In this document: piece by piece, positions 10,129 through 57,922 of the stretch | Layout: every line of letters starts with the position of its first letter | Numbering within the stretch: position 1 is the stretch's first letter | NCBI GenBank assembly: GCA_964565065.1 | Contig: CAZMDD010000132.1 | Location: forward strand, 1-58,107 | Direction: 5' to 3' | DNA: 58,107 nucleotides | Source of the DNA: an uncultured Caldilineales bacterium | GTDB lineage: Bacteria > Chloroflexota > Anaerolineae > J102 | The notes under the pieces: model-generated | Database searches by the model: none | What the model saw: only the letters and a program-made list of their open reading frames with translations | Told to the model about the DNA's origin: nothing | Made by a program: the position numbers and the translations under genes

Positions 10129-10173
10129 AACATGCTGGCCTGCGCCAGTTTAGATTAACGATTCACGTCCCCC

Positions 10174-11060: not shown

Positions 11061-11068
11061 GATGAAGC

Positions 11069-12307
11069 ATGCCTCATTTTGATTTCCTCCTCCCCGACGC
11101 CCGCCCGGTACACATTCGCGTCAATGACCGCGCCCTGACTATCAGCATCGACGAACTCAGCGTCTACACCTTTGATCTGGCGGGACGTTTGTTTGGCCTG
11201 TTCGACCACGGCATCAACTATCGTCGGGGCCTGGATGGCCGCATTCTGGCCCGATGGCGGGAGAAACAGGGGCAGCGGGCCCGGCGCTGGCTATCGCCCG
11301 AAGCACGCGACGCCCTGATGGTTACTGTGCAACAAGCGCTAAAACAGCTACAAGCCGCCATCCCCGCAGCCGCAGGCCCGCCACTGCATCCTCTACTGCA
11401 ACGGGCCATCAACTTCGACCACCAGGCCGACGCCCATGAATTCGCCCATGTTTACCGCCCGGTCAGCATCCTGCCCCCCGACCAATACCAGGCCCTGGTG
11501 CTGCAAGCCACCGAAGGCTGCTCCTTCAACACCTGCACCTTTTGCACCCTTTATCGCGACCGACCCTTCAAAATCCAATCGCCCGCCAGCTTTGCCCGAC
11601 ACCTGGATGAAGTCAGAGCCTTCTTCGGGCCCGGCATCACCCTGCGTCGCAGCCTCTTTTTGGCTGATGCCAACGCCCTCATCATCCCCCAAAAGCGCCT
11701 TTTGCCCCTGATGCAGCAGCTCGCCCGCGCGTTCCGCATCATGCCCGCGGGCCTGGACGCGCCCGCACGCCGCGCCTGGCAAACCGCACATCCCCAGGGC
11801 ATGACCGGCCTGTACGCGTTTGTCGATGGCCTGAGCGCAGAGCGCAAAAGCGCGGAGGATTTTCGGGAACTGCGCGCACTGGGTCTACGCCGCGTTTACA
11901 TCGGTCTGGAAAGTGGCCACGAACCCCTGCTGGCCTGGCTGCAAAAACCCAGCAGCGCCGCCGAAATGGCACAAGCGGTCGGACACATGAAACAAGCGGG
12001 CCTGGCCGTGGGCGTCATCGTGCTACTGGGTGCGGGCGGAGAACCCTTTGATGCCGGTCATGTGCAGGATACCGCCGCCATACTCAACGCCATGCCCCTG
12101 GATGCCACCGACATCATCTATCTGAGCCCCTTCCAGCCGGACATAGGCGCACCTTACCTGGCTTTGGCGCAAGAAGCGGGCATTGCACTGCCAACGCCAC
12201 AACTGATCGCTGCTCAACGACAGCGCCTACTGGCAGCATTGCGTCTGCCCGAGCCCCCAGCGGGTCCCAAGCGCGTGCCCTACAACCTGGCCGATTTTGT
12301 GTATTGA
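11069..12307 (+). CDS. Radical SAM protein with N-terminal extension
   Basis: EGCSFNTCTFC cluster motif, FLADANAL, RVYIGLESG, VIVLLGAGG. Confidence 0.88.
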   Translation: MPHFDFLLPDARPVHIRVNDRALTISIDELSVYTFDLAGRLFGLFDHGINYRRGLDGRILARWREKQGQRARRWLSPEARDALMVTVQQALKQLQAAIPAAAGPPLHPLLQRAINFDHQADAHEFAHVYRPVSILPPDQYQALVLQATEGCSFNTCTFCTLYRDRPFKIQSPASFARHLDEVRAFFGPGITLRRSLFLADANALIIPQKRLLPLMQQLARAFRIMPAGLDAPARRAWQTAHPQGMTGLYAFVDGLSAERKSAEDFRELRALGLRRVYIGLESGHEPLLAWLQKPSSAAEMAQAVGHMKQAGLAVGVIVLLGAGGEPFDAGHVQDTAAILNAMPLDATDIIYLSPFQPDIGAPYLALAQEAGIALPTPQLIAAQRQRLLAALRLPEPPAGPKRVPYNLADFVY

Positions 12308-12312
12308 AAAAT

Positions 12313-12454
12313 GTTACGACTAAGGTAGCCCGGCTAGAAACCACTAAGATACGAAGCCACAAAGGCACAAAGAAAGAAAAAGGTTTGAAATGCTTGGTGT
12401 TCTTAGTGTCTTTGTGCCTTTGTGGTGACTGAAGTCGGGGACGTTAGTCGTTAC
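12313..12454 (+). mobile_element. MITE family A copy (142 bp)
   Basis: 8-bp direct repeat TGAAAAAT at 12305-12312 and 12455-12462; the duplication includes the radical SAM stop codon. Confidence 0.93.
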
Positions 12455-27944: not shown

Positions 27945-29366
27945 ATGCGCACCTTTTTCCCTGCCCTCTTCATCCTTCTTGCCCTGGGATTACTGCTGCT
28001 GTTTTCACCCATCCTGGCAGCAGCCCCCACACCCACAGCCACGCCCGAAGCACCACACCCCCTGTCGGCGCTATCACCCATGGGCCTGGGCGAATGGCAC
28101 ACCCAGGCCAGCCACACCAGCGCCAACCTGCACGCCATTCAATTTTTGGATGACCGGGAAGGCTTTGCCGCGGGCGATGGCGGCACACTGCTGCACACTG
28201 TGGATGCGGGCGAACACTGGCTATCGCTGAACAGCGGCATCACCCAAACCATCCGCGCCCTACATTTTTTCGATGCGCAACATGGCTGGATGGCCGGCGA
28301 CACAGGCCTGCTGGCCAGCACAGCGGATGGCGGTGCAACCTGGACTGCGGAACTCATTCCCTTCCCCGGCAACCTATACACCTTCAGCTTTGTTGCACCT
28401 GACGATGCCTGGGTCGCGGGCGATGCGGGCCTGCTGTATCATTTTGATGGAAGTACCTGGCAGCAAAAACCCATGAACACCACCCTGGATATCTTCACCC
28501 TGGTCTTTGTCGATGCACAAAATGGCTGGGCCGGAGGCGAAGATGGCGCTATCTTGCACACCGCCGACAGCGGCAACACCTGGAGCATCCAAACCCTGGG
28601 CGGCGCAGACGCTTTTTACAGCCTGGCCTTTACCGATGCGCAGCATGGCTGGGCCGTGGGAACCGCGGGCGTCATGCTTTACACCGAAGATGGCGGACTG
28701 CACTGGCGTCTCCGCTCTCATGCGGGCGATAAAACGCTCTTTGGCATGACCATGGCTGACCGTTTTGTAGGCTGGGCAGTAGGTGATGATGGTCTGGCAC
28801 TGTACACCGGCGATCGCGGCGCCACCTGGTTCCAGGATAATCCGGGCACAGGCTTCACCTTGCGGGCAGTTTCTGCTCCCCTTCCCTGGCACGCCTGGGT
28901 GGCTGGCGATGCCGGAACCCTCCTCCACTGGCAAGACCCCCGCCCCACACCCACGCCCACACCCACAGCCACGCCCACACCTACAACCACCCCCACACCC
29001 ACGCCCACACCCACAGCCACGCCCACGCCCGAACCCTGCAACATCCAACTCTTCGTTTACTTCGATACCGACGAAAGTGGCAGCTTTGGCTCAGGCGATA
29101 CCCCCATCAGCGACACCCCCATCACCTTGCGCGACGCGAACAACATCATCCGCGGTGGCGGCTCTACCGACGCAGAGGGCAAAGTCATCTTCTACAACCT
29201 ACTGCCTGGTGATTACACCCTGTGGGCCACCACGCCCTGGGGCTACCGACCCACAACCCAACATCCTGTCAATGCACATCTGGTCCCGGGCGATGACCTC
29301 ACACTACAAGTAGGCTTCATCTCCGATAACGCCTACCAATACGTGCCCCTCATCTGGCGTGAATGA
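27945..29366 (+). CDS. Secreted YCF48/BNR beta-propeller + PT linker + SdrD-B-like domain
   Basis: Signal peptide; repeated GW.vG..G.iL.T.DgG.tW units; (PT)n linker; YFDTDESGSFGSGD; C-terminal YQYVPLIWRE. Confidence 0.85.
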   Translation: MRTFFPALFILLALGLLLLFSPILAAAPTPTATPEAPHPLSALSPMGLGEWHTQASHTSANLHAIQFLDDREGFAAGDGGTLLHTVDAGEHWLSLNSGITQTIRALHFFDAQHGWMAGDTGLLASTADGGATWTAELIPFPGNLYTFSFVAPDDAWVAGDAGLLYHFDGSTWQQKPMNTTLDIFTLVFVDAQNGWAGGEDGAILHTADSGNTWSIQTLGGADAFYSLAFTDAQHGWAVGTAGVMLYTEDGGLHWRLRSHAGDKTLFGMTMADRFVGWAVGDDGLALYTGDRGATWFQDNPGTGFTLRAVSAPLPWHAWVAGDAGTLLHWQDPRPTPTPTPTATPTPTTTPTPTPTPTATPTPEPCNIQLFVYFDTDESGSFGSGDTPISDTPITLRDANNIIRGGGSTDAEGKVIFYNLLPGDYTLWATTPWGYRPTTQHPVNAHLVPGDDLTLQVGFISDNAYQYVPLIWRE

Positions 29367-29409: not shown

Positions 29410-29438
29410 TTGCTGGAGCAATTATCCAGTGCTATAAT
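29410..29438 (+). promoter_or_regulatory. Sigma70-type promoter for the OmpR regulator
   Basis: TTGCTG, 17-bp spacer, TG-n-TATAAT (29433-29438). Confidence 0.7.
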
Positions 29439-29461: not shown

Positions 29462-30181
29462 ATGCCCTCCAAAAACCTGCACTCCCCTCAAAATCCTATG
29501 CGAATTCTGGTTGTAGATGACGATCCCCCTAGCGTAAAGATGACCTCCTTTCTACTGCGCGAAGAAGGCTACGAGGTGATAGCAGCCACCAATGGCGGCG
29601 ATGCACTCATCCTGGCAGAGCAAGAAGACCCAGACCTCATCCTACTGGATGTGATGATGCCCGGTCTGGATGGTTTTGCCACGCTACGGGAGCTACGCTC
29701 TCGTTTCGCCATTCCGGTCATCTTCCTTTCTGCCAAAGGCGAAACCTCGGATCGGGTAGCGGGCCTGGAACTGGGTGCCGATGATTACTTATCCAAACCA
29801 TTTGAACCTTCAGAACTACTGGCCCGGGTCAAGGCGGTTTTACGCCGCACCGAAGCCTACGCACTAGGCGAATCCTCCGACCGCATCGAGACCGGAGGCA
29901 TCCACCTGGACCCGCTGACCAATCGGGCCGAGCTGGCCAACGGGCGTGTTGTCGAACTCACCCCCATCGAAACCAGACTGCTGCACACCCTCATGCGCAA
30001 TGCCGGGCGAGTTCTCACCCATGATCAACTGCTGAACAGCGTTTGGGGAGCCAACTACGGTGGCTATCCCAACCAAATCGCAGTCTACATCCGGCGACTA
30101 CGCACCAAAATCGAAGAAAATCCCGACGAACCGCAATATCTGGCAACTGTGCGCGGCGTCGGCTACCGTTTCGAAGTTTGA
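29462..30181 (+). CDS. OmpR/PhoB-family response regulator
   Basis: ILVVDDD, LLDVMMP, GADDYLSKPF, LTPIETRLL, LRTKIE, TVRGVGYRF; start may be 29498. Confidence 0.96.
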   Translation: MPSKNLHSPQNPMRILVVDDDPPSVKMTSFLLREEGYEVIAATNGGDALILAEQEDPDLILLDVMMPGLDGFATLRELRSRFAIPVIFLSAKGETSDRVAGLELGADDYLSKPFEPSELLARVKAVLRRTEAYALGESSDRIETGGIHLDPLTNRAELANGRVVELTPIETRLLHTLMRNAGRVLTHDQLLNSVWGANYGGYPNQIAVYIRRLRTKIEENPDEPQYLATVRGVGYRFEV

Positions 30182-30247
30182 CCCCCAACACGATGCGTGA
30201 GCCGCTCGCAGACGCCTGATTCCATACTTTGGACGCCAGACTTCAGC

Positions 30248-30297
30248 AGGGGACGTGGACAGGTGACTTGACGCCTGCTGCCAGCGTCCCCTTTTTC
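30248..30297 (+). terminator. Probable intrinsic terminator after the OmpR regulator
   Basis: AGGGGACGTGG...CCAGCGTCCCCT followed by TTTT. Confidence 0.55.
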
Positions 30298-30329
30298 CTA
30301 TTCCCGGCATGATTCTCCCATAACCGCCC

Positions 30330-33300
30330 ATGAAAACAAAACTTCAGTCTACTCTTCTCCTGCTCATCGCTCTGGGCACAGCTTTTACCCTACTACTGGC
30401 TCTGCCGGCAGGACTGGGCGCGTTTGCCGTTGCCCACAACACCGCTGCAAACTGGCACGATTTTACCCCTGTCCCCGATGCCTGGCTGAACACCACGCCC
30501 GTGCAGACATCGGTCATTGTCAGCGACAGCGACGGTCTGAGCAATGACGCCGCCTATCAATACTCGGCAGATGGCATCAACTGGAGCGCATGGCTCACAG
30601 ACAACCTGCAAATAACGGGAACCATCTCGACCACCCGCCAGCTCACCATCACCGCGCTGGCCGTGGCCGATGGCGTTCATGCGGTACGCTACATCATCAC
30701 CGACGCCTTGGGCATAGCCGAAACCAGTCCCGCAGCCACCTTCCAGGTCGATACCCAGGCTCCGGCTGCGCCCGCAGGCCTGACCTTGCGCCCCAATGGC
30801 TGGCAAACCGCCACAGCCCCCACCTGGAAGGCCACCTGGCAAAATCCTGCCGAACTCAGCGGCGTGGCGGCAGCCTGCTACAAAATTGGCGCTGCGCCAA
30901 CCCATCCGCAAGATGGCCACTGCACCAGCGCTAACAACATCACCAGCATCGATACCCTCTCACCCACGCAGGAAGGAAGCTTCGATTTTTATCTCTGGCT
31001 ACAAGATGCTGCCGGAAACAGCACCATCACCAACACAGCAGTACTCACCCAAAGCATCCAATGGGATAAAACTGAGCCCAATCTCTTTTTAGATGTTTTT
31101 GGAACCATCGGGCAGGCAGCTTGGTACACCAGCACTGTAAACATCAACATCATGGCTTCCGATAACCAATCGGGCCTCGACAGCGTGCGCTACAAGCTGG
31201 GAGATACCCCTTGGCAAGAGGGACGCACCCTGAACCTAAGCGCCGCGGGCATTCACACCTTTACCGCACAAGCCATCGATGTGGCGCAAAATCAAAAAAC
31301 GCTGGAACCACGCATCTTTAAAGTCGACTTGGCAGCTCCTACAACAAGTTTAACAATCTCGGGCACTGCCGGACCAGAAAACTGGTACGAAAGCGCTGTT
31401 TCGATAGATTTTGCAGTTAGCGATGATGCCTCGGGCCCCCAAACAACGCACTGGCAAATGGATGACGAGCCCTGGCAACAAAGCAGCGTGGCCACAGTGG
31501 ATGCCGATGGCGAACACAGCCTCCATTATTTTAGCAGCGATGTTGCGGGCCACGCCGAAGCCCCCCGCGAAACCCTCATCAAAGTTGACCAGCACCCGCC
31601 CGTCACCTCCTACGCGGTACTCTCATCCCATGCAGCGGTCAATGGCTGGTATCGGCAACCTGTCACCATCACCCTGGTTCCGGTAGATGACGGCATTGGC
31701 GTGCAAAACACCCATTACCGCGTAAACGATGGCCCGTGGCAAGAGGGAACCACCTTTACACTGACCACCAGCGCCGATTACGCCATTAATTTTTACTCGG
31801 TGGATGCGCTGAATCACGAAGAAACAGTGGCCAGCATCCCCGACGGCGTTCATATCGATACCATCCCACCGCGGGCCCCCAGTCCTCTGGCGGTAACCCC
31901 AGGCGTGTGGACGCGCACCAACAGCTTTGATTTGCTCTTTGCCCTGCCCACCGACCTCAGCGGCATCGATGGCGCCTACATCAAAGTGGGCGAACCCCCA
32001 CTTTCGCCCACCGATGGCCAATGGCACGAGGATGTTAGCAACACTCTCACCCAAATTCAAGTTCCCAACGAAGGCGCCTACAAAGCCTACATCTGGCTGC
32101 GAGACCAGGCCGGCAACGTGGATCATGGCAATTATGGCGTGTGGGAAGATGCTCTGAGCCTGAAATATGATGCCACCCCGCCACTGACACACCTGGCAGT
32201 GCAGGGCGATGTAGGGAAAAATGGCTGGTACACCTCGCCCATCACCATCACCTTTGTGCCCACCGATGCTCTTTCCGGGCCCGCTGCCACCTGGGTTAGC
32301 ATCAATGGCGGGCCCCAAGCCGAACATACCGCCCTAACCCTTACCCAACAATCCAAACATGTATTGCGCTACCACACCCTGGATGTAGCCGGAAACCAGG
32401 AAGAAGACCAATTTGCCACCTTCCGCATCGATTATCAGGCCCCGGGCAGCCCCAGCAATGTCACTGTGCAGCCCCTAACCTGGACAAACAGCAACACCTT
32501 CACCCTCACCTGGAACAACCCGGCCGATGTCTCGGGCATCGGCGCTGCCTACTACGCCATCGGTCATGCCCCCGCAGGCCCGGAAGATGGCACACAAATT
32601 GCCGCAACGGGCGTCGTTTCCGGCATCACGGCCCCCGGCGAAGGCCTGTGGGACCTTTATCTGTGGGTGGAAGATAAAGCGGGCAATGTAGATGTGCGCA
32701 CCATGGTTCACCAAAAAAACGCGCTGCACTACGATAAAACACCGCCCCGCTCTATTCTCAAAGTAACCAAAGGCACGCTGGGCGATAACGATTGGTACAT
32801 CACCCCTGTTACGCTGGCTATCGACGCCACCGACCTGGCCAGCGGGCCTGCGGGCGTTCGCTACCGCATCAATGGCGACGACTGGCACTATCAGGCCAAA
32901 ACAGCATACATTCACCTGGGCCACACCGGCCAATTCGAAATCGACTACCAATCGGTCGATAACGCCAACAACCTCGAAGCCCCTCAGCACATCCTGATCA
33001 GCGTTGACTTAGATGCACCGCGGGCCCGATTCGCCCCCATTGACCGCTACCAGCGCATCTCTAACTTTGTGCTACACTGGATCGGCAGCGACCAGCCCCG
33101 TGGCAGCGGCCTGAATGGTTTTCAGGTGCAGGCCCGAGATGGCCGCAATGGCGCGTGGACAACCTGGGTCAATCTGGCAAACCAAGAGCCGTCGCGGCGC
33201 TACTATGGCGACTACGGCCACCGTTACTTCTTCCGGGTGCGGGCCCAAGACAAAGCAGGACACTTCTCACCCTGGCAGGAACTCCCCTGGGGCATTTATG

Positions 33301-33956
33301 TCGATCGCTTGCAAAACGGAGACTTTGGCAACGGTGACTTTGGCGCCTGGCAACATGGCGGACGCCTGCTGCAAAGCATCCATCCGGCCAGGGGCCCGCA
33401 GGGCAACACTGTTTCGGTGGCTGAACTGGGCACCGAGGCCTACGGAGCCAGCAACAACTTTGATGTGCCGGGCAACGTCCCTGTCGGCTGCGCGGCCATC
33501 ACCCAAACAGTGCGTATTCCCGGCTCAGCCGTGCTGGGCAGCCCCATGCTCACCTTTTGGTATCGCATGCGCACCTACGATGCCGAATACAGCGAACGCT
33601 TCAACAAAATCTACGACACCCTGGACGTTCATCTGCACTACGGCGATGAAGACCATCTTGTCCTGCGCACCGGTCAGCCCTACGACGAATGGAAAAAACA
33701 TGATGGCAAAAAGTTAGCCGATTTAGGCTGGCGTCAAGCCTTCATCCCCATTCCCCGCAGCATGATTGATGAAATCGTCACCATCAGCATTGAAAACTGG
33801 AACCGTAACGACAACTGGCTCAACACCTGGACACAAGTCACCGATATTCGCCTGTGGGAGCCGCACCAACTCTTCTTGCCTAACCTGGCAAGCGGTCGCG
33901 CTGCGGTCACAACTGCACAACAGCCAGCCACATCTGCCCATTCTGCCCAGCGCTAA
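30330..33956 (+). CDS. 1208-aa secreted Ig-like repeat protein (OmpL47-like and FN3-like modules, C-terminal CBM-like domain)
   Basis: N-terminal hydrophobic signal; about 5 'G..GWY.S.V...D..SG...Y...D.AGN.E..D..PP' modules interleaved with about 3 'W.NP.D.SG..AY..G..P..P.DG..W..D.AGN' modules; FN3-like RVRAQDKAG; QLFLPNL near end. Confidence 0.85.
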   Translation: MKTKLQSTLLLLIALGTAFTLLLALPAGLGAFAVAHNTAANWHDFTPVPDAWLNTTPVQTSVIVSDSDGLSNDAAYQYSADGINWSAWLTDNLQITGTISTTRQLTITALAVADGVHAVRYIITDALGIAETSPAATFQVDTQAPAAPAGLTLRPNGWQTATAPTWKATWQNPAELSGVAAACYKIGAAPTHPQDGHCTSANNITSIDTLSPTQEGSFDFYLWLQDAAGNSTITNTAVLTQSIQWDKTEPNLFLDVFGTIGQAAWYTSTVNINIMASDNQSGLDSVRYKLGDTPWQEGRTLNLSAAGIHTFTAQAIDVAQNQKTLEPRIFKVDLAAPTTSLTISGTAGPENWYESAVSIDFAVSDDASGPQTTHWQMDDEPWQQSSVATVDADGEHSLHYFSSDVAGHAEAPRETLIKVDQHPPVTSYAVLSSHAAVNGWYRQPVTITLVPVDDGIGVQNTHYRVNDGPWQEGTTFTLTTSADYAINFYSVDALNHEETVASIPDGVHIDTIPPRAPSPLAVTPGVWTRTNSFDLLFALPTDLSGIDGAYIKVGEPPLSPTDGQWHEDVSNTLTQIQVPNEGAYKAYIWLRDQAGNVDHGNYGVWEDALSLKYDATPPLTHLAVQGDVGKNGWYTSPITITFVPTDALSGPAATWVSINGGPQAEHTALTLTQQSKHVLRYHTLDVAGNQEEDQFATFRIDYQAPGSPSNVTVQPLTWTNSNTFTLTWNNPADVSGIGAAYYAIGHAPAGPEDGTQIAATGVVSGITAPGEGLWDLYLWVEDKAGNVDVRTMVHQKNALHYDKTPPRSILKVTKGTLGDNDWYITPVTLAIDATDLASGPAGVRYRINGDDWHYQAKTAYIHLGHTGQFEIDYQSVDNANNLEAPQHILISVDLDAPRARFAPIDRYQRISNFVLHWIGSDQPRGSGLNGFQVQARDGRNGAWTTWVNLANQEPSRRYYGDYGHRYFFRVRAQDKAGHFSPWQELPWGIYVDRLQNGDFGNGDFGAWQHGGRLLQSIHPARGPQGNTVSVAELGTEAYGASNNFDVPGNVPVGCAAITQTVRIPGSAVLGSPMLTFWYRMRTYDAEYSERFNKIYDTLDVHLHYGDEDHLVLRTGQPYDEWKKHDGKKLADLGWRQAFIPIPRSMIDEIVTISIENWNRNDNWLNTWTQVTDIRLWEPHQLFLPNLASGRAAVTTAQQPATSAHSAQR

Positions 33957-33961
33957 CCGCC

Positions 33962-35464
33962 ATGAAAGCATTCACGCCCGAAGATTCCGATGCCCTGGCC
34001 AGCCAGCCGCTGGATGCCGAAGAGGAATTTGAACTGGACAACACCGCCGAGACCATGCTTTCGGAAGCGGAAGTTGCCGAAAAACTCTATGCCGAGGGCA
34101 TGGCCTACTATCAACAACGCCAGTGGCGACGCGCCCAAACCACGTTCTTGCGTTTGCAGGAGCTCCAGCCGCAGCGCCCCGGCATTGTTGCGCTCATCGA
34201 CGAAATCAACTGGTTCATCGAGCTGGAAGAGATGATTCCTGAGCAAAACGACAACGTGGCCAGCGCCACAACAGCCACTCGGCTGCGCTGGCTGCCCTGG
34301 GTCATCTCTCTACTCATTCTCATCACCGCGGCGGTGGTCATCTTTTTGGTGGCAGGGGATCGCCTTTTTGGCTGGCCCGGGCGCAATCCTGACCCCGGCC
34401 TGGTCGAACTCTACAATGCCGGGCAATCGCAACTGGCCATCGGCAACTACGATGGCGCCATCGACGCCTTTGAAAGCATCCTCAGCCGCGACCCCAACGA
34501 CATCGCAGCTCAGGCCGGTCTGGAACAAGCCAAAAAACTGCGGGAAATGGCCGAAAAATACAAATCGGCCCAAGAAGCCATCGACGCCGAAAACTGGGGA
34601 ACAGCCCGAGAAAACCTCGAAGCCATTGTCGAACAATATCCCGCCTACGAAGATGCCGATCAGCTTTTGGATTACGTCACCCGCAAACAGGAGCTGGATA
34701 CTCTCTTCAATCAGGCAGCGGCTGCCTACAACAGCAATCACTGGGCCGATGCCATTGCTCTGTTTGAATCGATTCAGACCCGCGATGAAACCTTCCGCGC
34801 TGACGCCCTCAAAGAATCCCTTTTCATCAGCTATCTCGAAGAGGGCGAACGGCTCATCGAAGAGCATGGCGACGTGCTGGACCAGGTGCGCCAAGCCTTG
34901 CAGCACTTCAATGCTGCGCTCATCATCCATCCCGATAACCAACGAGCCGCCCAAAATCGGCGTCTGGCCGCAGATTACCAAACCGCACTGCTCGCCATGC
35001 AGCGTGAAGACTGGCCCCAAGCCATCCGCAACCTGGGACAAATCGTCGCCATCCAACCGGACTACGGCGGCGGACGGGCTGGATGTTTGCTGTATCAGAG
35101 TTCGGTGGCGCAGGCCCAAATTGATACCGATGCCAAAAATTACAAACCGGCGCTAACCTTAGTCGAAAAGGCGCTGCGCATCACCCCCGCCTGCGAAAGC
35201 CAGGCCGAGGCCCTGACGTTACGCAATCGCCTGCTAAAAGCGTTGGCAACGCCCACGCCTACGCCCACACGCACCCCCACGCCCACGCGGACGCCCACAC
35301 CCACATCCACGCCTACGCCTACGCCCACCATCACACCTACACGCCCTCCTACGCCCACGCCTACGCCCACACCTACCCCCGCGCCCCCCACGCCCACACC
35401 ACCGCCACCACCCCCGCCCACGCCCACACCGCCGCCACCGCCCACCCCCACGCCGCCGCGCTAG
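33962..35464 (+). CDS. Single-pass membrane TPR protein with C-terminal Pro/Thr tail
   Basis: N-terminal TPR-like helices, [24 protein letters not shown], further TPR-like repeats, about 70-aa (PT)n/polyPro tail ending TPPR. Confidence 0.85.
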
Positions 35465-35469
35465 TCATC

Positions 35470-36789
35470 ATGCCCAACGCACGCTTTACCCAGCTTTTGA
35501 GCACCCCCGAGCGGCGCTGGTGGCTGTGGATACTGGGGATTCTGCTCTTCTTCTCGCCGTTGGCGCTGCTACCCCTGACCCGCGCGACGTCATCTCCGGT
35601 GTGGAATAATGTGGGACAAGAGACCGGTGCGCTGGTCAATGCCACGTTTAGCAGCGAAAAGGGGCTGACCACGCTTTACCGCTGGTCTGCTGCAGGCCTG
35701 TTTCGCAGCGTGGATGAAGGTTTGAGCTGGATTGCCATCGGGAGCGGCTTGCCCCGCAACAGTCGCGGCCAACTTTTGCTGCGGGCACTGGCCACAGGAG
35801 GCAGCCGTCAGGTTTATGCCTTGGCCGGAGAGAAAAACCGCCGTAGCCTTTATCGATCTCTTGATGCCGGCGATACTTTCGAACTGCTTTTCAGCCCGCA
35901 AAAATTCAATCCTACCCTGCTGGCAGCCCGGGCGCACCCCGATAATGATTGGCTCATCATCGGCGGCGAACAGCATCTGCTTATGAGCCAAAATGGTGGC
36001 AACTCGTGGCACGAAAAAGTGATGCCCGGCCCCATCACCGCCATGCACATTGCCAATGAAGTGTTGGTTGCGGGCCCGGGGTGGCTGGTGACCCTGACCG
36101 ATGAAAACACCTGGCAGCAATCTGCACTGCCGCCCGAACTCGTTCCCATTCAGCTCATCACACCTGAGCGGGCCCCGGAACAACTTTATGCCATCTCGGC
36201 CCGGGGGCAACTCTGGCGGCGGCAAGCTGCGGGCCCGTGGCAGCATCTGCCAGTTCCTACCCATGCCGCCATCACCCGCATAACCTTGGATCCTATCATC
36301 TGGCAGCTCATTTATCTGGGGGACGCGCAGGGCAAAATCTGGCGTAGCGAGGATGCCGGGCGCACCTGGGAAAATCTGTCTGGCCCGATTTCCGGCATTG
36401 TGCGCACCCTTTTTTTAGACCCCAGCCAACGGCATCGCCTTTATGCCGGTGCAGGCTACGGGCTTTGGTGGCATGAACAAACCGCGGTAATTCCCACAGC
36501 CACACACACACCTACTCATACACCCCAACCCACAGCCACGCCCACCGCCACACCAACTCCCTCACCCACGCACACCGCCACCCCGAGTCCCACCCCCAGC
36601 CCTACGCAAACGCCCACCGCCACATCCACACCTACCCCCACACCAACCCCCACGGCCACGCCCGTGCCCACTCGCACGCCCACCCCCATGCCCACAGCCA
36701 CGCCCACCGCCACACCGCACCCCACAGCAGCGCCGCCGCCACCCCCTCCCACGGCCCCACCCCCTCCCACGGCCACGCCGCCACGATAG
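35470..36789 (+). CDS. Membrane-anchored BNR/beta-propeller protein with C-terminal Pro/Thr tail
   Basis: N-terminal hydrophobic segment; [35 protein letters not shown] Asp-boxes; about 100-aa PT tail ending TPPR. Confidence 0.85.
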
Positions 36790-36817
36790 CCCTAACCCTC
36801 TGCTGGCACTCCTCCCC

Positions 36818-39028
36818 ATGTCCACCTCGTTCCAGAATAAACTGTCCCTCATCATCACCAACAAAAGCGTGCTGCTTTTGAGCGCACTGGTGGCGCTATG
36901 GCTGACAGATGCCCGGGCCCGCAGCCTCTTTCCCTGGATTATCACCGGGCATCTTTTGCTTTCGGTGCTGCTTATTTTTTGGCTTTCTCGTCGCCCGCAG
37001 CAGCAGCGGTGGCTGTTGGCCCTGAACTATCTGCTGGACATGGGGCTTACGCTCATTCTCATCAACATCAGCGGTGGCATCAATTCGCCATTTTGGGCAA
37101 TGCTTATTTTGCAGGTGCTGCTACCCGCCTTTTATTTTTCCTGGCCACTTTTCATCTGGCTTGGCGCATTTTTGAGCGGGCCGCTTTATGTGCTTTCGGT
37201 GGGAATTCGGGCGCAAAGCCTGGTTTTTCTCAGCGATCCCCTCTTTTTAACCCGTTACGCCCTGCTCTTTGTGGGCGCCATTGCCGGGGCGCTGGCTGTG
37301 CAACAATGGCTTGATAGCCAGGAACGAGAACGAAAATTGCGGACCATGCTGGCCACCCGCGAGGCTGATCTGGCTAGTCAAACGCAACAATTGCAACGTA
37401 CCGCCAGCGATTTGGGCGAGCGCGTGCTGCAATTGCGGGCCCTGCAGGAGGTAGCCCGCTCGCTGGCTGTCACCCTGAACCTGCGAGAAACCAACCGCGC
37501 CCTGATTCGACGCCTGGCCACCATCACCGATGCCCGTCATGTGGCTCTGGTGCGGCTGCAACCGGAAGAACTGCGGCTGCAAGGCTCATGGCTGGACACC
37601 CGGGCCCAACCCCGCCGCCTGATTCCCATCACGCTGCAACTTTCGCCGCAGGATATCGAAAGTTTGAGCATGGGCATGTTGGTTTTTAGCCCGGTCAGCG
37701 CAGAGCTGGGCTTTCAGCAATTGCAAAAGATATGGGATGTGAAGTATTTTTTGTGCGTGCCCCTGATGCTACGCGGCGAGCCCTTTGGCGCGTTGTATCT
37801 GGGTGATAATCGCCGCGATTTTGTCAGTGAACAGGAACGCCAATTTCTGGAATCCTTTGCTTACTTTGCATCCACTGCCATCGAAAACGCACAGCTTTAC
37901 CAAACCATCGCCGATAAAAACCAAGAGCTGGAGACCATTCTTTCGGGCATTGGCGATGGCGTGCTGGTGGTGGATGCCGATTTGCGCGTTATGCTGATGA
38001 ACCCTGTGGCGACACACATCTTCAGCCTGGAATCTACCCCATCCAGTGGCCAGCCTCTGCCCCAAAGCATCCGCCAGCAGCCTATCTACGACCTGCTGGA
38101 AAATATCCGCAGCCAACCGGATGCCTTTTTGGTGCAGGAAATCGAACTGGCGCCATTGGGTAGTGAGCAATTGCGCACCTATCAGGCTTTGGCTACGCCA
38201 TTGCTGGTGGATCAACATTTGCAGGGCATTGCCACGGTACTGCGTGACATCACCGCCCAAAAAGAGCTGGAGCGAATGAAATCGAATTTTCTGTCGGTGG
38301 TTTCCCACGAGTTGCGCACACCGCTCCATGCCATCAAGGGCTTTGTCAACATTATTCTCATGGGCAAAACTGGCCCGGTCAGCGAAATTCAGCGCGATTT
38401 TTTGGAGACGGTACAGGAACAAACCAATAATTTGCAACGCCTGATTGATGATTTGCTGGAATTTTCGCGGCTGGAATCGGGCAGTGTGAGCCTGCGTTTG
38501 CAGCCGGTGGATGTGCCAGTGGTCATCGAAGCGGTGCTGGATAAGCTTTCGCTGGCGGCCAGCTCCACTCAGGTTCAGCTAGTCAACCACACGCCCGACG
38601 CGCTCCCCACCATTCTGGCCGACCCCTGGCGGCTGGAGCAGGTGGTTACCAATCTGGTGGATAATGCCATTAAATTTACGCCGGCCCGGGGCAAGGTGAG
38701 CATCAATGCCCAGGATTTGGGCGATTTTATTCAGGTCTCGGTGCAGGATACCGGTATTGGCGTGCCGCCCGAGCAGCAGGAACGCATTTTCGACCGTTTT
38801 TATCAGGTCGATGGCGGCGCCAACCGGCAATACAAAGGCACAGGTCTGGGATTAACCATTTGTCGGCACATTGTGGCGCATCATCGCGGGCGCATTTGGG
38901 TTGAAAGCGGGCCCGAACAAGGAGCAACCTTCTTCTTTACCCTCTACAAAAAATTGGAAGACAGCGATATGGCCACATTGGACTTTACCACGCTACCCGC
39001 CCGCGCCGATGTTGTGGAACAACCCTGA
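36818..39028 (+). CDS. Membrane sensor histidine kinase (multi-TM, coiled coil, GAF, PAS, HisKA, HATPase)
   Basis: SHELRTPL, TNLVDNAIKFT, DTGIG, FDRFYQVD, GTGLGL; GAF LCVPLMLRGEPFGALY..AIENAQLY; PAS GDGVLVVD..MNP. Confidence 0.95.
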   Translation: MSTSFQNKLSLIITNKSVLLLSALVALWLTDARARSLFPWIITGHLLLSVLLIFWLSRRPQQQRWLLALNYLLDMGLTLILINISGGINSPFWAMLILQVLLPAFYFSWPLFIWLGAFLSGPLYVLSVGIRAQSLVFLSDPLFLTRYALLFVGAIAGALAVQQWLDSQERERKLRTMLATREADLASQTQQLQRTASDLGERVLQLRALQEVARSLAVTLNLRETNRALIRRLATITDARHVALVRLQPEELRLQGSWLDTRAQPRRLIPITLQLSPQDIESLSMGMLVFSPVSAELGFQQLQKIWDVKYFLCVPLMLRGEPFGALYLGDNRRDFVSEQERQFLESFAYFASTAIENAQLYQTIADKNQELETILSGIGDGVLVVDADLRVMLMNPVATHIFSLESTPSSGQPLPQSIRQQPIYDLLENIRSQPDAFLVQEIELAPLGSEQLRTYQALATPLLVDQHLQGIATVLRDITAQKELERMKSNFLSVVSHELRTPLHAIKGFVNIILMGKTGPVSEIQRDFLETVQEQTNNLQRLIDDLLEFSRLESGSVSLRLQPVDVPVVIEAVLDKLSLAASSTQVQLVNHTPDALPTILADPWRLEQVVTNLVDNAIKFTPARGKVSINAQDLGDFIQVSVQDTGIGVPPEQQERIFDRFYQVDGGANRQYKGTGLGLTICRHIVAHHRGRIWVESGPEQGATFFFTLYKKLEDSDMATLDFTTLPARADVVEQP

Positions 39029-39042: not shown

Positions 39043-39184
39043 GTTACTACTAAGGTAGCCAGGCTAGAAACCACTAAGACACGAAGCCACCAAGGCACAA
39101 AGAAAGAAAAAGGTTTGAAATGCTTGGTGTTCTTCGTGTCTTTGTGCCTTTGTGGTGATTGAAGTCGGATACGTTAGTCGTTAC
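39043..39184 (+). mobile_element. MITE family A copy (142 bp)
   Basis: 8-bp direct repeat AAAAGATG at 39035-39042 and 39185-39192. Confidence 0.93.
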
Positions 39185-39224: not shown

Positions 39225-40481
39225 ATGACTGATCCTATCCGCATCCTTCATTTTGCCGATGTGCATATTGGCATGGAACGCTATGGCCGAATCGATGCCG
39301 CCACCGGTGTCAACAGCCGTGTCATGGACTTTTTGCGCCGTCTTTCCGATTTGGTGGACTACGCCATTAGCCAATCGGTTGATTTGGTCATCTTCGCGGG
39401 CGATGCCTACAAAAGTCGCAATCCCAACTCTACTTATCGCCGAGAATTTGCCTGGCGCATCAAACAACTGGCCGACCGAGGCATTCCGGTGGTGATGCTG
39501 CCAGGCAACCACGATTTGCCCGCGGCTCCCAATCGCGCCTCCACCATCGAAATTTTCGACACGCTGCGAGTTGCCAACATTCATGTACTGGAACACAGCA
39601 GCGGCGTTACCCGCATCGAAACAGCCCGCGGGCCCGTGCAGATTGCCCCTGTGCCCTATCCCTACATCTCGGAACTCACCAGCCAGGAAAGCTATCGAGC
39701 GGTGAGTCTGGCCGAACTAGACCGGCTCATCACCACCAAGCTGGATGCCATCATCCACGATTACGCGGCCACAGTGCGACAGCAGCCTGATATTCCCGCC
39801 ATTCTGGTGGGACATTTTTCGGTGGATGAGGCCCGCACCGGCTCAGAACACAGCATCATGGTGGGACGCGATGTCAAAGTCTCGCGGGCGGCCCTGGTGG
39901 ACGATGCCTGGGATTATGTGGCATTGGGGCACATCCACAAACATCAGGATTTGAATCAGGGAGCGCATCCCCCGGTGGTTTACAGCGGCAGCCTGTCGCG
40001 CATCGATTTTGGCGAGGAGCGGGAGCCCAAGGGCTGGGTACTGGCCCAAGTGACCCGTGGGCACACCGACTACGATTTTATCCCGCATTTGCACCGCGAA
40101 GCGCGACGATTTGTGACGCTGGATTGCGATTGTCGGCAAAAGGATGACCCGCTGGAAGCCATTTTGCAGCACATCGGACACAAAGAAAAACTGGGCATCA
40201 TCGACAATGCCATCGTGCGCCTGCGCTTGCGCCTGACTGCTGAGCAAGATGCCATGATTCAGGAGCGCAAAATCAAAGCGGCGCTGAGTTCAGCGTTTAC
40301 GGTGGCGGGCATCATCAAAGAGATTGATTGGGGCGTTCGCAGCCGCTTGGGTGCAATCAGCATCGAAAGCATGACACCGCTGGAGCTGCTGGAACGTTAT
40401 CTCGACATTTCCGATTTACCGGCAGCACGCCAAAAAGTGCTGCTGGAAGAAGCCAAAACCATCATCCAGGAGAGCCAATGA
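39225..40481 (+). CDS. sbcD: Exonuclease SbcCD subunit D (Mre11-like)
   Basis: [50 protein letters not shown]. Confidence 0.9.
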
Positions 40482-41248
40482 TGAAGATTGCCGAAAAAAC
40501 AGCCTTGATTGCCGGTGGCGCTTCCGGTTTGGGCGAGGCCACGGCCCGTCGCTTGCACCAGGAAGGAGCCCGTATCGTTATTTTTGATCTCAATGCCCAG
40601 CGCGGGCAGGCCGTGGCTGACGAACTGGGCGATGCTGCATGCTTTGTGGCAGGCAGCGTTACCGAAGAGGCAGATGTCCAAAAAGCCGTGGATGAAGCCA
40701 TCTCTCGTTTTGATGCGTTGCACATAGCAGTCAACACCGCGGGCATTGCCACGCCCGGGCGCATTCTGGGCAAGCATGGCCCGTTGGCCCTGGAAACTTT
40801 TGCCCGCGTCATTGCCATCAATCTGGTGGGCACGTTCAATGTGATGCGACTGGCCGCAGCAGCCATGCAGCAAAATCTGCCCCAGGATGATGGCGAGCGG
40901 GGTGTCATCATCAACACCGCGTCCATTGCCGCTTACGAAGGGCAAATCGGACAGGCTGCTTATGCTGCGTCCAAAGGTGGTGTGGTGGGCCTGACCTTGC
41001 CCGCAGCCCGCGATCTGGCCAAATGGGGCATCCGCGTGCTAACCATTGCTCCCGGCTTGTTCGACACGCCGCTGTTGGCGGGCCTGCCCGAACAAGTAAA
41101 GCTGGGATTGGGCCAGCAAGTTCCCTTCCCCTCCCGTTTGGGGCAACCTCCGGAATATGCTTTTTTGGTCACGCACATCATCGAAAACACATTGCTCAAC
41201 GGCGAGGTGATTCGCCTGGATGGCGCCTTGCGCATGGGCCCGAGGTAG
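40478..41248 (+). CDS. 3-hydroxyacyl-CoA dehydrogenase type II (HSD10-like SDR)
   Basis: [54 protein letters not shown]. Confidence 0.93.
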
Positions 41249-42201: not shown

Positions 42202-45200
42202 ATGTCCATGAGTCGAAATCTCCCCCGAAGCATGGCGCTCATGCTACTGCTTTTGATGGCCCTGTCTTTCGCATCTGGCGGCACAGTTCAAGCTTCGCCT
42301 ATGCATCAGGGGACAGGTGGTCTATTTCTTCCCGCACCAGATGCGCCGAATGTTACACTTAGCCCCACTGCCGTAGAATCTCGGCCCGTCTACATCGATT
42401 ATCAAATCATCAGCACGGTAAAACCTGGTGATGCACTACCACTCAACCTATTTCCAGATACTGCCTACACTGCTGTCATCGATAGCATCCAATCAGGCGT
42501 GACGGGCGCTACGATTTGGACCGGACACCTGAAAAACGTAGAGATGAGTCTGGTGGTTCTGGTAATGAAAGATGGCGTTATGATGGGACAAATCTCCTCT
42601 CCAGAAGGTATTTACCAAGTTCGTTACGCACAAGAAAAACGTCATCAAATTCTTAAAATCGACCAATCAACCTACCCGCCAGAAATGGAACCCATCTCGA
42701 TTGATAGCATTGAAGCAAGCATTCTTGCCCCAGTACTGGCTACCGACGCAGATGACGGCTCGTTGATCGATATTTTAGTCGTCTATTCCCCTGAGGCGAA
42801 AACCCAGGTAGGTAGTGCAACAGCTATCGAAAACCTTATTGAACTCGCCGTTGCTGAAACAAATGCCTCCTATGAAAACAGCCAAGTCTCTCAGCGTATC
42901 GCCTTAGTTCATGTAGAAGAAATCGCTGGGGCCGTCAATAACTTTGAAGATGACTTGCCAGCAATCCGGGATCCTAACGACGGCAAAATGGATAATGTCC
43001 ACCCCATGCGCAATACCTATCACGCTGACAATGTGGTTCTGATTATCCATGACACCGATTATTGTGGTTTGGCATACCACATGAGCAGTGTCAATACCGG
43101 TTTTGAGTCCGATGCGTTTGCTACCGTTCACTGGGATTGTGCCACTGGCAATTACAGCTTTGGGCATGAACTTGGGCATAACATGGGCGCCCGGCACGAT
43201 TGGTACGTCGATGATGGCACAACACCATACGGCTATGTGCACGGCTATGTGCATTCCAGCTATGACTGGCGAACCATCATGGCCTATGGTAACGAATGTT
43301 CTGATCATGGAACCAGTTGTACTCGCTTGCAGTATTGGTCGAACCCAGCAGTTAGCTATGGTGGCGCAGCAATGGGTGTCGCGGCTGGAACCAGCACCAG
43401 TTGCAATGCCGGTACATCTTATCCTCCGGGCTCCGAATGTGATGCTGATAATCACCTAACACTCGATACCACCGCCTCTACCACTGACCAATTCCGTAGC
43501 AGTGAATATGTGTGGGTGGGTAATACCACTGACTGGAATAGCGCCAGTAACTGGAACACCGAAGAAGGCGCTCCCGGCGCTACGACGACTGTTCATCGTG
43601 TGCCGCGCACCATTGACGATGTTGTTATTCCTTCATCTCCTGTGGGTGGCAACTTCCCCACCATTGCCGGCGGCACAGCCAATGTGCGCGATCTAACCAT
43701 CGAGAACAACGCCCAACTTACTCTGAATAGTGGTACACTCAATGTGTATGGCAATTGGGAAGAAACGGGAAGTGGCCAGTTCAATGGACAGGGTGGCACA
43801 GTTGCCTTTGTGGGGAAGCTCCCACAAACAATCACGGCCAATGCCGCATCTGTGTTCCCCAATGTTACTATTGGCGATGGAACGGGCAATCAACTGGTGC
43901 TTCTGAAGAGTGATCTGGACATCAATGGCAATTTAGTCATTCAGGATAAAGCTTCCTTTAATGCCGATCTTTACACCATCGAAATTGCTGGTAATTGGAC
44001 AGAAACAGGCACCTTTGTTTCCGGTACAAGTACTGTCATCTTTGATGGTGCTTCGCAGACAGTTGATCGTACAGTCACCACGCTTAGCATCATCGATGAA
44101 GCCTTCCATGATGCCGATAACGCAGGTGGTAGCTATAGCACTTCCAAACTTCCTAGTGGCTGGGTACGTGAACAAAGCTCAGGTAGCGGCTTTTTAGGCG
44201 GCAATGGTAATTGCGACGATGGCGCTGCTGTCAAGTGGAATAATAGTAGTGATGCTTGGCTTTTTACCACCAGCTTTCATCTTGAAGCAGGTGTAGATTA
44301 CAGCCTTTCGTACAAATATCGGTTGCTGCAAGGTGGCGGTGCGAGCCAGGAATGGAGTACTTATATTGGTCAGCAGCAAAACTCTGCCAGCATGACACAA
44401 CTTCTTGGCACAACCGGAGCAGTAGCACCATCAAACTGCACCACCAAGACAGAAAACTTCACTGTGGCAACTTCAGGGACTTATTACCTCGGTATTCGAG
44501 TCCAAGATGGAAGCGGCTCTAACTATGCCACGGTTGACGATGTTCTCCTGACTGGCACCTTCCGCCCGACGTTTTACAATGCCCAGATAAAGAGTACTGG
44601 TGCCACAACGTTCAACAAAGATGTTACCATTTGGAATGATTTATCGGTTTTTGCAAACGCAGTGCTTGATTTGAATGGCCATGATGTGACTGTCGATGGC
44701 TCAACAACGAACAATGGCAAGATCAAAAACACACTGCAAGTGAATGCCGGTAGCACAACGGAATTCATGCACATCAAAAACAAAGCTGGCAATGCCGATA
44801 AATACCATGGTGTTGACATTACCCCTTCAGGCTCCATGGGAGATGTAACGGTAGAAATCCGTGGCAATCAGAGCAAATGTAATGTGGGTGATGAAATCAT
44901 CCATCGCTGCTACGATATTTCGCCTACCACATCAGCCAGTGCTACAATTAAATTCTGGTATCTGAATGCAGAACATGGGAACGAGACGGTTAGCCAGATG
45001 AAAGCGTATCACTGGAATGGTTCATCATGGGATACGCTTACTTCGACTCGGGGAACTACTAGCGGCTATGAATGGGTCGAGGCCTCGGGTGTGAGCAGTT
45101 ACTCTCCCTTTGGCTTGGCTGATGGTAATCCTGCGCCCCCCACAACGGTAAAACTTGTTCAGATTCAGGGCAGGGAGCTGCAATCTATCACACTTCTCTT

Positions 45201-45276
45201 GGGTGGATTGTTGATGCTTGGTCTGGGGGCAGCCGCCTTGGGTTGGGCCAAGATGCGGCAAGCTGCCAACAAGTAG
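42202..45276 (+). CDS. Secreted M12B (reprolysin-like) metzincin with C-terminal beta-rich domains and membrane anchor
   Basis: Signal peptide, prodomain, HELGHNMGARH zinc motif, RTIMAY Met-turn; C-terminal PTTVKL + hydrophobic helix + KMRQAANK; AAGGAGG RBS. Confidence 0.9.
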   Translation: MSMSRNLPRSMALMLLLLMALSFASGGTVQASPMHQGTGGLFLPAPDAPNVTLSPTAVESRPVYIDYQIISTVKPGDALPLNLFPDTAYTAVIDSIQSGVTGATIWTGHLKNVEMSLVVLVMKDGVMMGQISSPEGIYQVRYAQEKRHQILKIDQSTYPPEMEPISIDSIEASILAPVLATDADDGSLIDILVVYSPEAKTQVGSATAIENLIELAVAETNASYENSQVSQRIALVHVEEIAGAVNNFEDDLPAIRDPNDGKMDNVHPMRNTYHADNVVLIIHDTDYCGLAYHMSSVNTGFESDAFATVHWDCATGNYSFGHELGHNMGARHDWYVDDGTTPYGYVHGYVHSSYDWRTIMAYGNECSDHGTSCTRLQYWSNPAVSYGGAAMGVAAGTSTSCNAGTSYPPGSECDADNHLTLDTTASTTDQFRSSEYVWVGNTTDWNSASNWNTEEGAPGATTTVHRVPRTIDDVVIPSSPVGGNFPTIAGGTANVRDLTIENNAQLTLNSGTLNVYGNWEETGSGQFNGQGGTVAFVGKLPQTITANAASVFPNVTIGDGTGNQLVLLKSDLDINGNLVIQDKASFNADLYTIEIAGNWTETGTFVSGTSTVIFDGASQTVDRTVTTLSIIDEAFHDADNAGGSYSTSKLPSGWVREQSSGSGFLGGNGNCDDGAAVKWNNSSDAWLFTTSFHLEAGVDYSLSYKYRLLQGGGASQEWSTYIGQQQNSASMTQLLGTTGAVAPSNCTTKTENFTVATSGTYYLGIRVQDGSGSNYATVDDVLLTGTFRPTFYNAQIKSTGATTFNKDVTIWNDLSVFANAVLDLNGHDVTVDGSTTNNGKIKNTLQVNAGSTTEFMHIKNKAGNADKYHGVDITPSGSMGDVTVEIRGNQSKCNVGDEIIHRCYDISPTTSASATIKFWYLNAEHGNETVSQMKAYHWNGSSWDTLTSTRGTTSGYEWVEASGVSSYSPFGLADGNPAPPTTVKLVQIQGRELQSITLLLGGLLMLGLGAAALGWAKMRQAANK

Positions 45277-47843: not shown

Positions 47844-48054
47844 AAGATGCGATGTGGACAAGCCAGGAGCAACAACAATAAAAAGACAAACTGCAAACGC
47901 CATACTTCAGGTCATGGCAACCATTCAGATAAAGCCTTGCAGAACGCTCACTAATAATAGCATAACTCCCATCCAGCCCCATGCCCGTCATCCCCAAAAG
48001 CGAGCCTGGCGTGGTACAATGCTGAACATCACATAAACACCGGAGGCACAATTT

Positions 48055-53263: not shown

Positions 53264-53461
53264 GTAACGACTAAGTGGTTTGCAATAAGTTTCCTAATTC
53301 CAAATTGCGAGCTTGTCATTTTTCCATGACGAAGATGGACCCAATTAGACGAATATCAAAGCCTGCTTTTTAGGGCAGAAAAGTCGCACATCAGGTTCTC
53401 TTTGTGCCTTTGTGGCTTCGTGGCTTAGTGGTTTCTAGCCGGGCTACCTTAGTGTCGTAAC
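53264..53461 (-). mobile_element. MITE family A variant (198 bp) with a different internal segment
   Basis: Minus strand begins GTTACGACACTAAGGTAGCCCGGCTAG and ends TTAGTCGTTAC; 8-bp direct repeat CGAAATGC at 53256-53263 and 53462-53469. Confidence 0.88.
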
Positions 53462-57779: not shown

Positions 57780-57922
57780 GTTACTACTAAGGTAGCGCGG
57801 CTAGAAACCACTAAGACACGAAGCCACAAAGGCACGAAGGAAAGAAAAAGGTTTGAAATGCTTGGTGTTCTTAGTGTCTTTGTGCCTTTGTGGCGATTGA
57901 AGTCGGGTACGTTAGTCGTTAC
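57780..57922 (+). mobile_element. MITE family A copy (143 bp) without matching target duplication
   Basis: Both ends intact; flanks CTTTTTGA and CATGGAAG do not match. Confidence 0.9.

Follow-up and report, generated by a model that had tools for sequence, protein, structure and literature searches.

In the WalRK system of Bacillota, the bitopic proteins YycH and YycI, the bulk of which is extracytoplasmic, are encoded in the operon and control the kinase. In the MtrAB-LpqB system of Actinomycetota, the propeller-containing extracytoplasmic protein LpqB is co-encoded with the kinase and is thought to modulate it. Propellers and tetratricopeptide repeat (TPR) proteins are also found as pairs that act together outside the cytoplasmic membrane (BamB/BamD and TolB/CpoB), and the propeller Ycf48/HCF136, a photosystem II assembly factor, binds a peptide of its client. 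Filamentous Chloroflexota, among them the bulking organism Ca. Amarolinea, occur in large numbers in sediments, hot springs and activated sludge; to our knowledge, almost nothing is known of how members of this phylum sense their envelope or surroundings. Sensing through co-encoded membrane proteins is well established for a class of kinases that lack an ectodomain, which includes WalK-YycHI, LiaFSR, SaePQRS and VraTSR (PMC8534201). Here we analysed a module of five genes on a stretch of 58,107 nucleotides from an uncultured Caldilineales bacterium (contig CAZMDD010000132.1; the whole stretch is referred to as the window), encoding an OmpR-family response regulator (RR), a giant protein of immunoglobulin (Ig)-like repeats, a TPR protein, an Asp-box propeller and a histidine kinase. 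Comparisons of sequence and gene order provide good support for this module being a conserved, so far undescribed operon of Anaerolineae-class Chloroflexota, which resembles WalK-YycHI, MtrB-LpqB, LiaFSR and SaePQRS by analogy of working principle and not by homology.

All five genes lie on the forward strand: the RR at 29462-30181 (239 amino acids), the giant at 30330-33956 (1208 amino acids), the TPR protein at 33962-35464 (500 amino acids), the propeller at 35470-36789 (439 amino acids) and the kinase at 36818-39028 (736 amino acids), with intergenic gaps of 148, 5, 5 and 28 nt in that order. The open reading frame (ORF) list and its translations reproduced exactly the coordinates, gaps and co-orientation of the four downstream genes and the upstream OmpR regulator reported in the original prediction, an earlier reading of the window. 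The RR matches Pfam Response_reg (109.8 bits) and Trans_reg_C (96.1 bits) above cut-off, carries the motifs VVDDD, LLDVMMPG, FLSAKG and SKPF with the acidic pocket and the acceptor Asp, Thr/Ser and Lys present, and probably starts at Met13 (position 29498). No other protein of the set is as conserved: its identity is 79-90% for close loci and 64-67% for distant loci. The kinase has GAF, PAS, HisKA (74.1 bits) and HATPase_c (113.7 bits) domains, the last two above cut-off, and the H, N, G1, F and G2 boxes read SHELRTPL, DNAIKFT, DTGIGV, FDRFYQ and GTGLGL. Judged by these domains and motifs, the two proteins are a HisKA kinase and an OmpR-family regulator of the classical two-component type. PADLOC gave no relation to defence: its sole result was a generic match to the HATPase region of the kinase (29.5 bits), and the other four proteins were unmatched.

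Like the module, WalRK combines an OmpR-family regulator and a PAS-HisKA kinase with co-encoded bitopic proteins that are mostly extracytoplasmic. The module proteins nevertheless fall well below the NCBIfam cut-offs for this system (kinase against WalK, 257 bits, cut-off 725; RR against YycF, 210 bits, cut-off 340), and Pfam scans of the module proteins returned neither the YycH nor the YycI family. WalK has two transmembrane segments and an extracytoplasmic loop domain, whereas the module kinase has six transmembrane segments and no loop domain; the module differs further in placing the partner genes between RR and kinase, in encoding the giant in addition and in a C-terminal arginine signature described below. 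MtrAB-LpqB is likewise a three-component unit with a co-encoded extracytoplasmic propeller protein, and MtrA is the best NCBIfam match of the RR, but the scores again remain below cut-off (MtrA, 222.3 bits against 300; MtrB, 169.1 bits against 450). The LpqB propeller family (PF10647) was absent from the module propeller at E ≤ 10 and from both this and the second propeller encoded upstream of the RR at E ≤ 0.01, and GerMN was unmatched. LpqB is a lipoprotein encoded 3' of the kinase, and MtrAB-LpqB has neither a TPR protein nor a giant. In agreement with the original prediction, which knew of no described system with such an architecture, our literature search found no description of it, and the source annotations read only 'TPR repeat protein', 'hypothetical', 'ATP-binding protein' or 'GAF domain-containing protein'.

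Conservation of the gene order was assessed in a TPR-anchored scan, in which the TPR alignment was searched against 185,579 genomes (one per species). This gave 20 loci, all in Chloroflexota metagenome-assembled genomes (MAGs), and tblastn of six window proteins on those loci recovered full colinearity wherever the contig was long enough. The TPR orthologues (49-83% identity) all came from Caldilineae/Caldilineales or 'Anaerolineae' MAGs, and their contigs had identical gene order amid unrelated flanking genes. The weakest TPR 'homologues' (P0046 and others, ~20% identity) were Tad-pilus TPR proteins in an unrelated context and were discarded. To guard against circularity, a kinase-anchored metagenome scan used as query an alignment of the N-terminal membrane domain alone, which is blind to the neighbouring genes; ORFs of the resulting 80 loci were then searched with profiles for the partners. 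The propeller gene lay directly 5' of the kinase in 51/52 testable loci, the TPR gene was present in 32/32 and the giant in 25/25, and an OmpR regulator adjoined the giant in 14 of 15. The named sources of the module were all Anaerolineae/Caldilineales MAGs, including Ca. Amarolinea dominans, and a search for cultured hosts through cluster names yielded only MAGs and Ca. Amarolinea. In divergent loci the order was kept although the giant, TPR protein and propeller were only 24-36% identical to those of the window, which indicates that the linkage is old. By these synteny counts the arrangement is far beyond chance, and the scatter of orthologues in related genomes that would have spoken against the original prediction was decisively not seen.

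The kinase input domain (residues 1-170, nt 36818-37327) is predicted from hydropathy to have six transmembrane segments, five scored and one evident, joined by extracytoplasmic loops of at most ~17 amino acids, which agrees with the original description of a kinase with several transmembrane helices and no large extracellular sensor. A strongly conserved coiled coil (residues 175-215) leads from it into the GAF domain. The N-terminal 220 amino acids had no Pfam match, even at E ≤ 10, and only 32 relatives of the input domain were found at E ≤ 1e-3 among 1.84 billion (1.84e9) representative proteins; every one of the relatives examined that had enough upstream sequence had module genes upstream. 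The membrane domain has an invariant Asp74 (D74) in its third transmembrane segment, a GGxxS loop and the outer-loop motif SLxFLxDxxFLxRY.

The TPR protein matches TPR_1/2/6 and related Pfam families and has a single, conserved transmembrane helix (residues 114-132 by hydropathy), which leaves ~110 amino acids in the cytoplasm and a TPR array outside it (residues 140-430, from Pfam and hydropathy), followed by a Pro/Thr-rich (PT) tail that ends in Arg (nt 35249-35461). The bitopic topology predicted for this protein therefore stands, as does the outer array; of the TPRs predicted on the cytoplasmic side, there are only weak TPR-like matches (ANAPC3, residues 29-71; LcrH/SycD, residues 36-71). 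The cytoplasmic part contains a conserved motif (residues ~41-100, nt 34082-34261), and identity in distant loci is 50-57% over residues 41-80, compared with 25-40% elsewhere in the protein; this block argues for a conserved intracellular partner. BamB/BamD and TolB/CpoB are comparable to the module in that a propeller is co-encoded with a TPR protein, and the TPR protein has weak matches to BamD/YfiO and YbgF; these are all below cut-off (BamD, 49.5 bits against 81.4; YbgF, 33 bits against 90.1). Unlike BamD and CpoB, the module protein crosses the membrane and includes a domain in the cytoplasm, and no outer-membrane machinery is involved.

The propeller matches Sortilin-Vps10/BNR families, and four Asp-boxes are readable in its sequence. 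We computed an AlphaFold2 (AF2) model (predicted local distance difference test (pLDDT) 88.7; predicted TM-score (pTM) 0.82) that has seven blades. Foldseek against the PDB placed Ycf48 first (5oj3, 5ojr and 2xbg; E 4.5e-13, TM-score 0.64-0.74), followed by single halves of GH74 proteins. The Asp-box propeller fold originally proposed for this protein is thus borne out by Pfam, AF2 and Foldseek; its description as membrane-anchored is one of two readings of its N-terminus. By hydropathy there is one N-terminal hydrophobic helix (residues 19-37), an anchor or a cleaved signal, and the protein closes with a PT tail ending in Arg (nt 36505-36786). The seven-bladed Asp-box fold is shared with Ycf48, but sequence identity is 12-15% and the scores are below cut-off (PSII_BNR, 17.6 bits against 27; PRK13684, 16.2 bits against 326); the module propeller also differs in its non-photosynthetic host context, in its N-terminal helix and PT tail and in the tie of its gene to a kinase gene. 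Compared with GH74- or sialidase-type glycosidases, the protein has one propeller and not the tandem pair that makes up the GH74 catalytic cleft, and Pfam BNR_2/sialidase was below threshold. The single propeller comprises ~300 amino acids, the GH74 matches cover half of 700-amino-acid targets (target-normalised TM-score 0.31-0.36), and a match to the NCBIfam 'F510_1955 family glycosylhydrolase' was sub-threshold. From the model and these matches, the propeller is best read as a binding scaffold rather than a demonstrable enzyme.

The giant matches Pfam Big_13 and contains five stretches of the NCBIfam OmpL47-type small beta domain (NF047446, 207.6 bits, cut-off 40), while its score against the Leptospira OmpL47 equivalog stayed below the cut-off (105.9 bits against 250). 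Self-search resolved a signal peptide or anchor (residues 1-35), a Big_13-like domain (40-142), a run of modules in the order A-B-B-B-A-B-A-B (143-894), a fibronectin type III (FN3) domain (895-990), an unclassified all-beta domain (990-1175) and a short tail ending in Arg (1176-1208), where module A is FN3-like (~105 amino acids) and module B is OmpL47-type (~80 amino acids). The FN3 assignment is backed by matches of an orthologue profile to titin and chitinase A1 FN3 domains in the PDB and by Pfam fn3 in 4/21 orthologues. Residues 990-1175 had a Pfam match in 0/21 orthologues; the terminal beta domain, which opens with an NGDF..G..W motif, gave with the same type of profile a single match in the PDB, to a xylanase chain (E=0.19). 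The C-terminal 295 amino acids had three matches in an index of 5.8 billion proteins, and the resulting four-row alignment produced an unusable AF2 model (pLDDT 45). The original description of 1208 amino acids of alternating Ig-like modules followed by FN3 is upheld; for its 'CBM-like' end (CBM, carbohydrate-binding module), no family match was found across 21 orthologues. Orthologues of the giant range over 1051-1829 amino acids as called, with stop-to-stop frames of up to ~2258 amino acids (locus L083), and the C-terminal third is the best conserved.

A C-terminal arginine is common to the three partner proteins. Among orthologues from loci L001-L115, the last residue is Arg in 50/57 giants (window codon 33951-33953), 45/53 TPR proteins (35459-35461) and 57/67 propellers (36784-36786). 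These frequencies of 85-88% compare with 19% (96/511) in background ORFs of at least 300 amino acids (binomial p 1e-25 to 1e-31), and with 0/36 in the RR, 1/14 in the Ycf48-like protein encoded upstream of the RR (which ends ...LIWRE in the window) and 20/70 (29%) in the kinase. The residue is encoded by all six Arg codons and followed by all three stop codons, which points to selection on the residue itself. A cause at the nucleotide level (translational coupling or stop context) was rejected on the same grounds, and also since Arg is never the last residue of the RR, whose gene likewise has another close behind it. The three partners mostly end in P-x-R-COOH, often after a PT-rich tail but also in propellers that lack a tail. 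No signal of the LPXTG, PEP-CTERM or GlyGly-CTERM type was met with in these C-termini: the tails are PT-rich or of low complexity, with a single terminal Arg and no C-terminal hydrophobic segment, and the absence of a C-terminal transmembrane helix argues against a known sortase/exosortase-type signal. Most simply, the terminal Arg would be a shared docking or processing signal inside a complex. As a side observation on the tails, the module locus of Ca. Amarolinea dominans has two PMT_2-family glycosyltransferases 3' of the kinase, candidate glycosylators of the Pro/Thr-rich tails.

Upstream of the RR we read a strong putative sigma-70-type promoter with an extended -10 element (TTGCTG-17 nt-TGc-TATAAT, 29410-29438, forward strand), and the architecture TTGC(T/A)C-17-TGGTATAAT is kept 5' of the RR in ~20 orthologous loci. 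In most relatives the -35/-10 spacer is GCAGTATGGCCCGATGG, from which the spacer in the window differs, and a TCCGC..TCCGC repeat is conserved 5' of the promoter; the conserved spacer and the repeat may be operator sites for autoregulation. Between RR and giant, sequence reading and folding revealed a hairpin (30249-30291) followed by a T5 tract (30292-30296), together a predicted intra-operon terminator or attenuator on the forward strand (30249-30296), which a simple terminator scanner did not report. The hairpin is conserved in 12 Caldilineales-type loci, with compensatory changes at 6/7 basal pairs. A known riboswitch or leader identity was rejected, as an Rfam scan of the region at E ≤ 1 left the hairpin without a family and gave only a chance snoRNA-like match. 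From the U-tract to the ATG of the giant there are 33 nt in the window and 14-63 nt in relatives, too short to fit a promoter, so that transcripts entering giant, TPR protein, propeller and kinase must pass the hairpin. In distant loci the hairpin is mostly absent and the genes are close or overlapping instead: in L050, L064 and L082 the RR and giant genes share 4 nt, in other distant loci they are 36-56 nt apart, and in L033 both giant/TPR and propeller/kinase overlap. The attenuator is, on this comparison, a feature of the Caldilineales subgroup. The short distance from hairpin to ATG and the RR/giant overlap in other lineages make the RR the first gene of the operon; the probable terminator noted in the original prediction is thus real in conservation, whereas its reading of the regulator as a separate unit does not hold. 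We consider the hairpin best read as an attenuator that keeps the RR in excess over the four downstream products. One relative, L012, has ~500 nt extra between hairpin and giant start (~5650-6150), unlike all its sister loci, possibly an insertion.

From the observed operon anatomy, co-inheritance, topologies, folds, catalytic motifs and arginine signature, we infer a physical complex, a direction of information flow and a kind of stimulus, and would give about even chances to the operon encoding a multi-component envelope/surface sensor specific to Anaerolineae-class Chloroflexota. The giant, TPR protein and propeller would be made at kinase-like low levels from a common message and, on the outer side of the membrane, would form a complex that signals envelope or surface conditions (contact, stretch or bound polymer) to the kinase. 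The TPR protein would be the likeliest trans-membrane coupler, being the only partner with a conserved cytoplasmic part, and the kinase, receiving input through its private six-helix domain, would then set the phosphorylation of the RR. The three surface proteins and the kinase share one tightly packed message, which fits a sensor complex, and passage of the giant-to-kinase transcripts through an attenuator is expected if the RR is to be in excess over kinase and partners. The antenna or adhesin complex relaying to the kinase that was originally proposed is plausible, and the conserved linkage, the ectodomain-less kinase and the bitopic TPR protein fit it; a glycan cue has less backing, as it draws on the CBM call, for which there was no family match. 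New here are the place of the RR in the operon, the TPR cytoplasmic motif as the best conserved part of that protein and the terminal Arg on three surface proteins.

Several observations weigh against a sensor. The presumed pairing of kinase and RR is based on their co-location in 14/15 kinase-anchored loci and in all Caldilineales loci, and there are exceptions: L052 has no OmpR regulator within 3.5 kb upstream, and L115 (Ca. Amarolinea dominans, GCA_016719785.1, 1540-18104) lacks an adjoining one, a HisKA_3/GerE (NarL-type) pair preceding the giant instead. In L041 an orphan kinase (9875-12070) that is 60% identical to that of the window has no partner genes within 10 kb on either side. The transmembrane domain is the least conserved part of the kinase (18-45% identity per 20-amino-acid bin), which is not what one would expect of a tight interface between transmembrane helices, and the cytoplasmic GAF/PAS domains could be the real sensors. 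By their sequences, giant and propeller may be either membrane-anchored or released, and an Ig-repeat protein of 1000-1800 amino acids resembles adhesins or wall proteins more closely than it does any known accessory of a kinase.

The last point leads to the strongest rival, in which the surface proteins are regulated cargo: the giant would be an adhesin or a component of wall or sheath, TPR protein and propeller its extracytoplasmic assembly or anchoring factors, much as in BamB/BamD and TolB/CpoB, and the two-component system would merely switch the operon on and off according to a cue, cytoplasmic or from the membrane, that the GAF/PAS or transmembrane domains perceive. We regard this as possible though unlikely. 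It accords with the adhesin-like Ig/FN3 repeat build of the giant, with its OmpL47-type modules, which take their name from a surface protein of Leptospira that is reported to bind matrix components, and with a repeat number that varies among orthologues, as is usual for exposed proteins. The sub-threshold BamD/YfiO and YbgF matches of the TPR protein and the fact that Ycf48 is itself an assembly factor would suit the proposed assembly roles, the kinase does carry GAF and PAS domains, and the terminal Arg common to the three surface proteins could serve as a tag by which they are sorted or anchored. What speaks against cargo is the arrangement of the genes: the structural genes are wedged between RR and kinase and translationally packed with the kinase, an arrangement that would tie an abundant structural protein and a kinase to one message behind an attenuator. 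The conserved cytoplasmic motif of the TPR protein would be needless for an extracytoplasmic chaperone, and the private transmembrane domain of the kinase occurs almost only beside these partners.

A role in glycan foraging or sensing, modelled on RsgI/SigI or on hybrid two-component polysaccharide sensors, has the propellers as BNR-type glycosidases, the terminal beta domain of the giant as a CBM and the kinase answering to released sugars or to substrate binding; we find this improbable. Asp-box propellers do include sialidases and GH74 enzymes, single halves of the latter ranking among the best fold matches, but GH74 has two propellers where this protein has one of seven blades, and the first-ranked match is the non-enzymatic Ycf48. 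The F510_1955 match, the NGDF..G..W motif with its one xylanase-chain match and a CBM9 protein encoded upstream in L033 would be in keeping with a glycan role, yet families of glycoside hydrolases, CBMs, transporters and sugar metabolism were all below threshold in the core proteins, and the flanks are unrelated housekeeping genes that differ between loci. That the genes form no functional unit and are neighbours kept by descent in a narrow clade would suit the single bacterial class of all named sources, but order and orientation persist at 24-36% identity and amid unrelated flanks, start/stop overlaps occur and the three partners have a common C-terminal Arg signature, so we give this explanation hardly any weight.

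Within the sensor reading, a more specific and rather doubtful version makes the terminal Arg-COOH, on its flexible tail, a tethered ligand that plugs into a site on a partner, such that mechanical displacement (contact, wall stretch or filament strain) would unplug it and switch the kinase. Candidate sites are D74 of the kinase together with its conserved acidic outer loop SLxFLxDPxFLxRY, a carboxylate clamp of the TPR protein and the central pocket of the propeller. If true, a tethered-Arg switch would be a mechanosensing principle new to two-component systems. More generally, the module appears to be a sharply delimited signalling unit found across the class, in which a private membrane input is combined with three obligate extracytoplasmic partners that share a C-terminal Arg mark, and it offers a concrete, testable entry point. 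A sensor of this kind would extend the kinase-plus-accessory principle to a far larger extracellular assembly than any described, and the C-terminal Arg signature may hint at a rule, so far unrecognised, by which surface proteins are docked or sorted.

Directly 5' of the RR, the gene at 27945-29366 (forward strand) encodes a predicted secreted protein with a Ycf48-like BNR propeller (five Asp-boxes), a PT linker and an SdrD_B/CnaB-like domain (Pfam PSII_BNR, 99.6 bits; SdrD_B, 38.4 bits). It contains the PSII_BNR domain and is not a Ycf48 orthologue, scoring 104 against a cut-off of 326 for the PRK13684 equivalog. The gene occupies this position in every Caldilineales-type locus that extends far enough and is absent from distant loci, L033 having its CBM9 protein there instead. 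On this distribution it is an accessory neighbour of the Caldilineales subgroup and not part of the core.

At the other end of the module, an unstranded palindromic dispersed repeat (39072-39155) immediately follows the kinase stop, with inverted repeats, long hairpins and a fold z-score of -3.5, and likely marks the end of the operon. A 25-mer of this element has five copies in the window at no more than two mismatches, against 0 expected by chance; the copies of this intergenic repeat, which resembles repetitive extragenic palindromes (REP) or miniature inverted-repeat transposable elements (MITE), are at 39072-39155, 5086-5110, 12348-12372, 53400-53424 (reverse strand) and 57815-57839.

The module is followed by a gene for an SbcD/Mre11-type nuclease (39225-40481), unrelated local context that differs in other loci. 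The listed ORF with a TTG start at 40328-41248 overlaps the nuclease gene, and the start of this short-chain dehydrogenase/reductase (SDR) gene is more likely at 40478. A 778-amino-acid ORF on the reverse strand (45567-47903) had no Pfam match at E ≤ 0.001. The gene at 42202-45276 encodes a 1024-amino-acid reprolysin/M12-like metalloprotease that ends in a hydrophobic helix and a basic tail (...LGGLLMLGLGAAALGWAKMRQAANK), a C-terminus that looks like a membrane-anchor or sorting signal.

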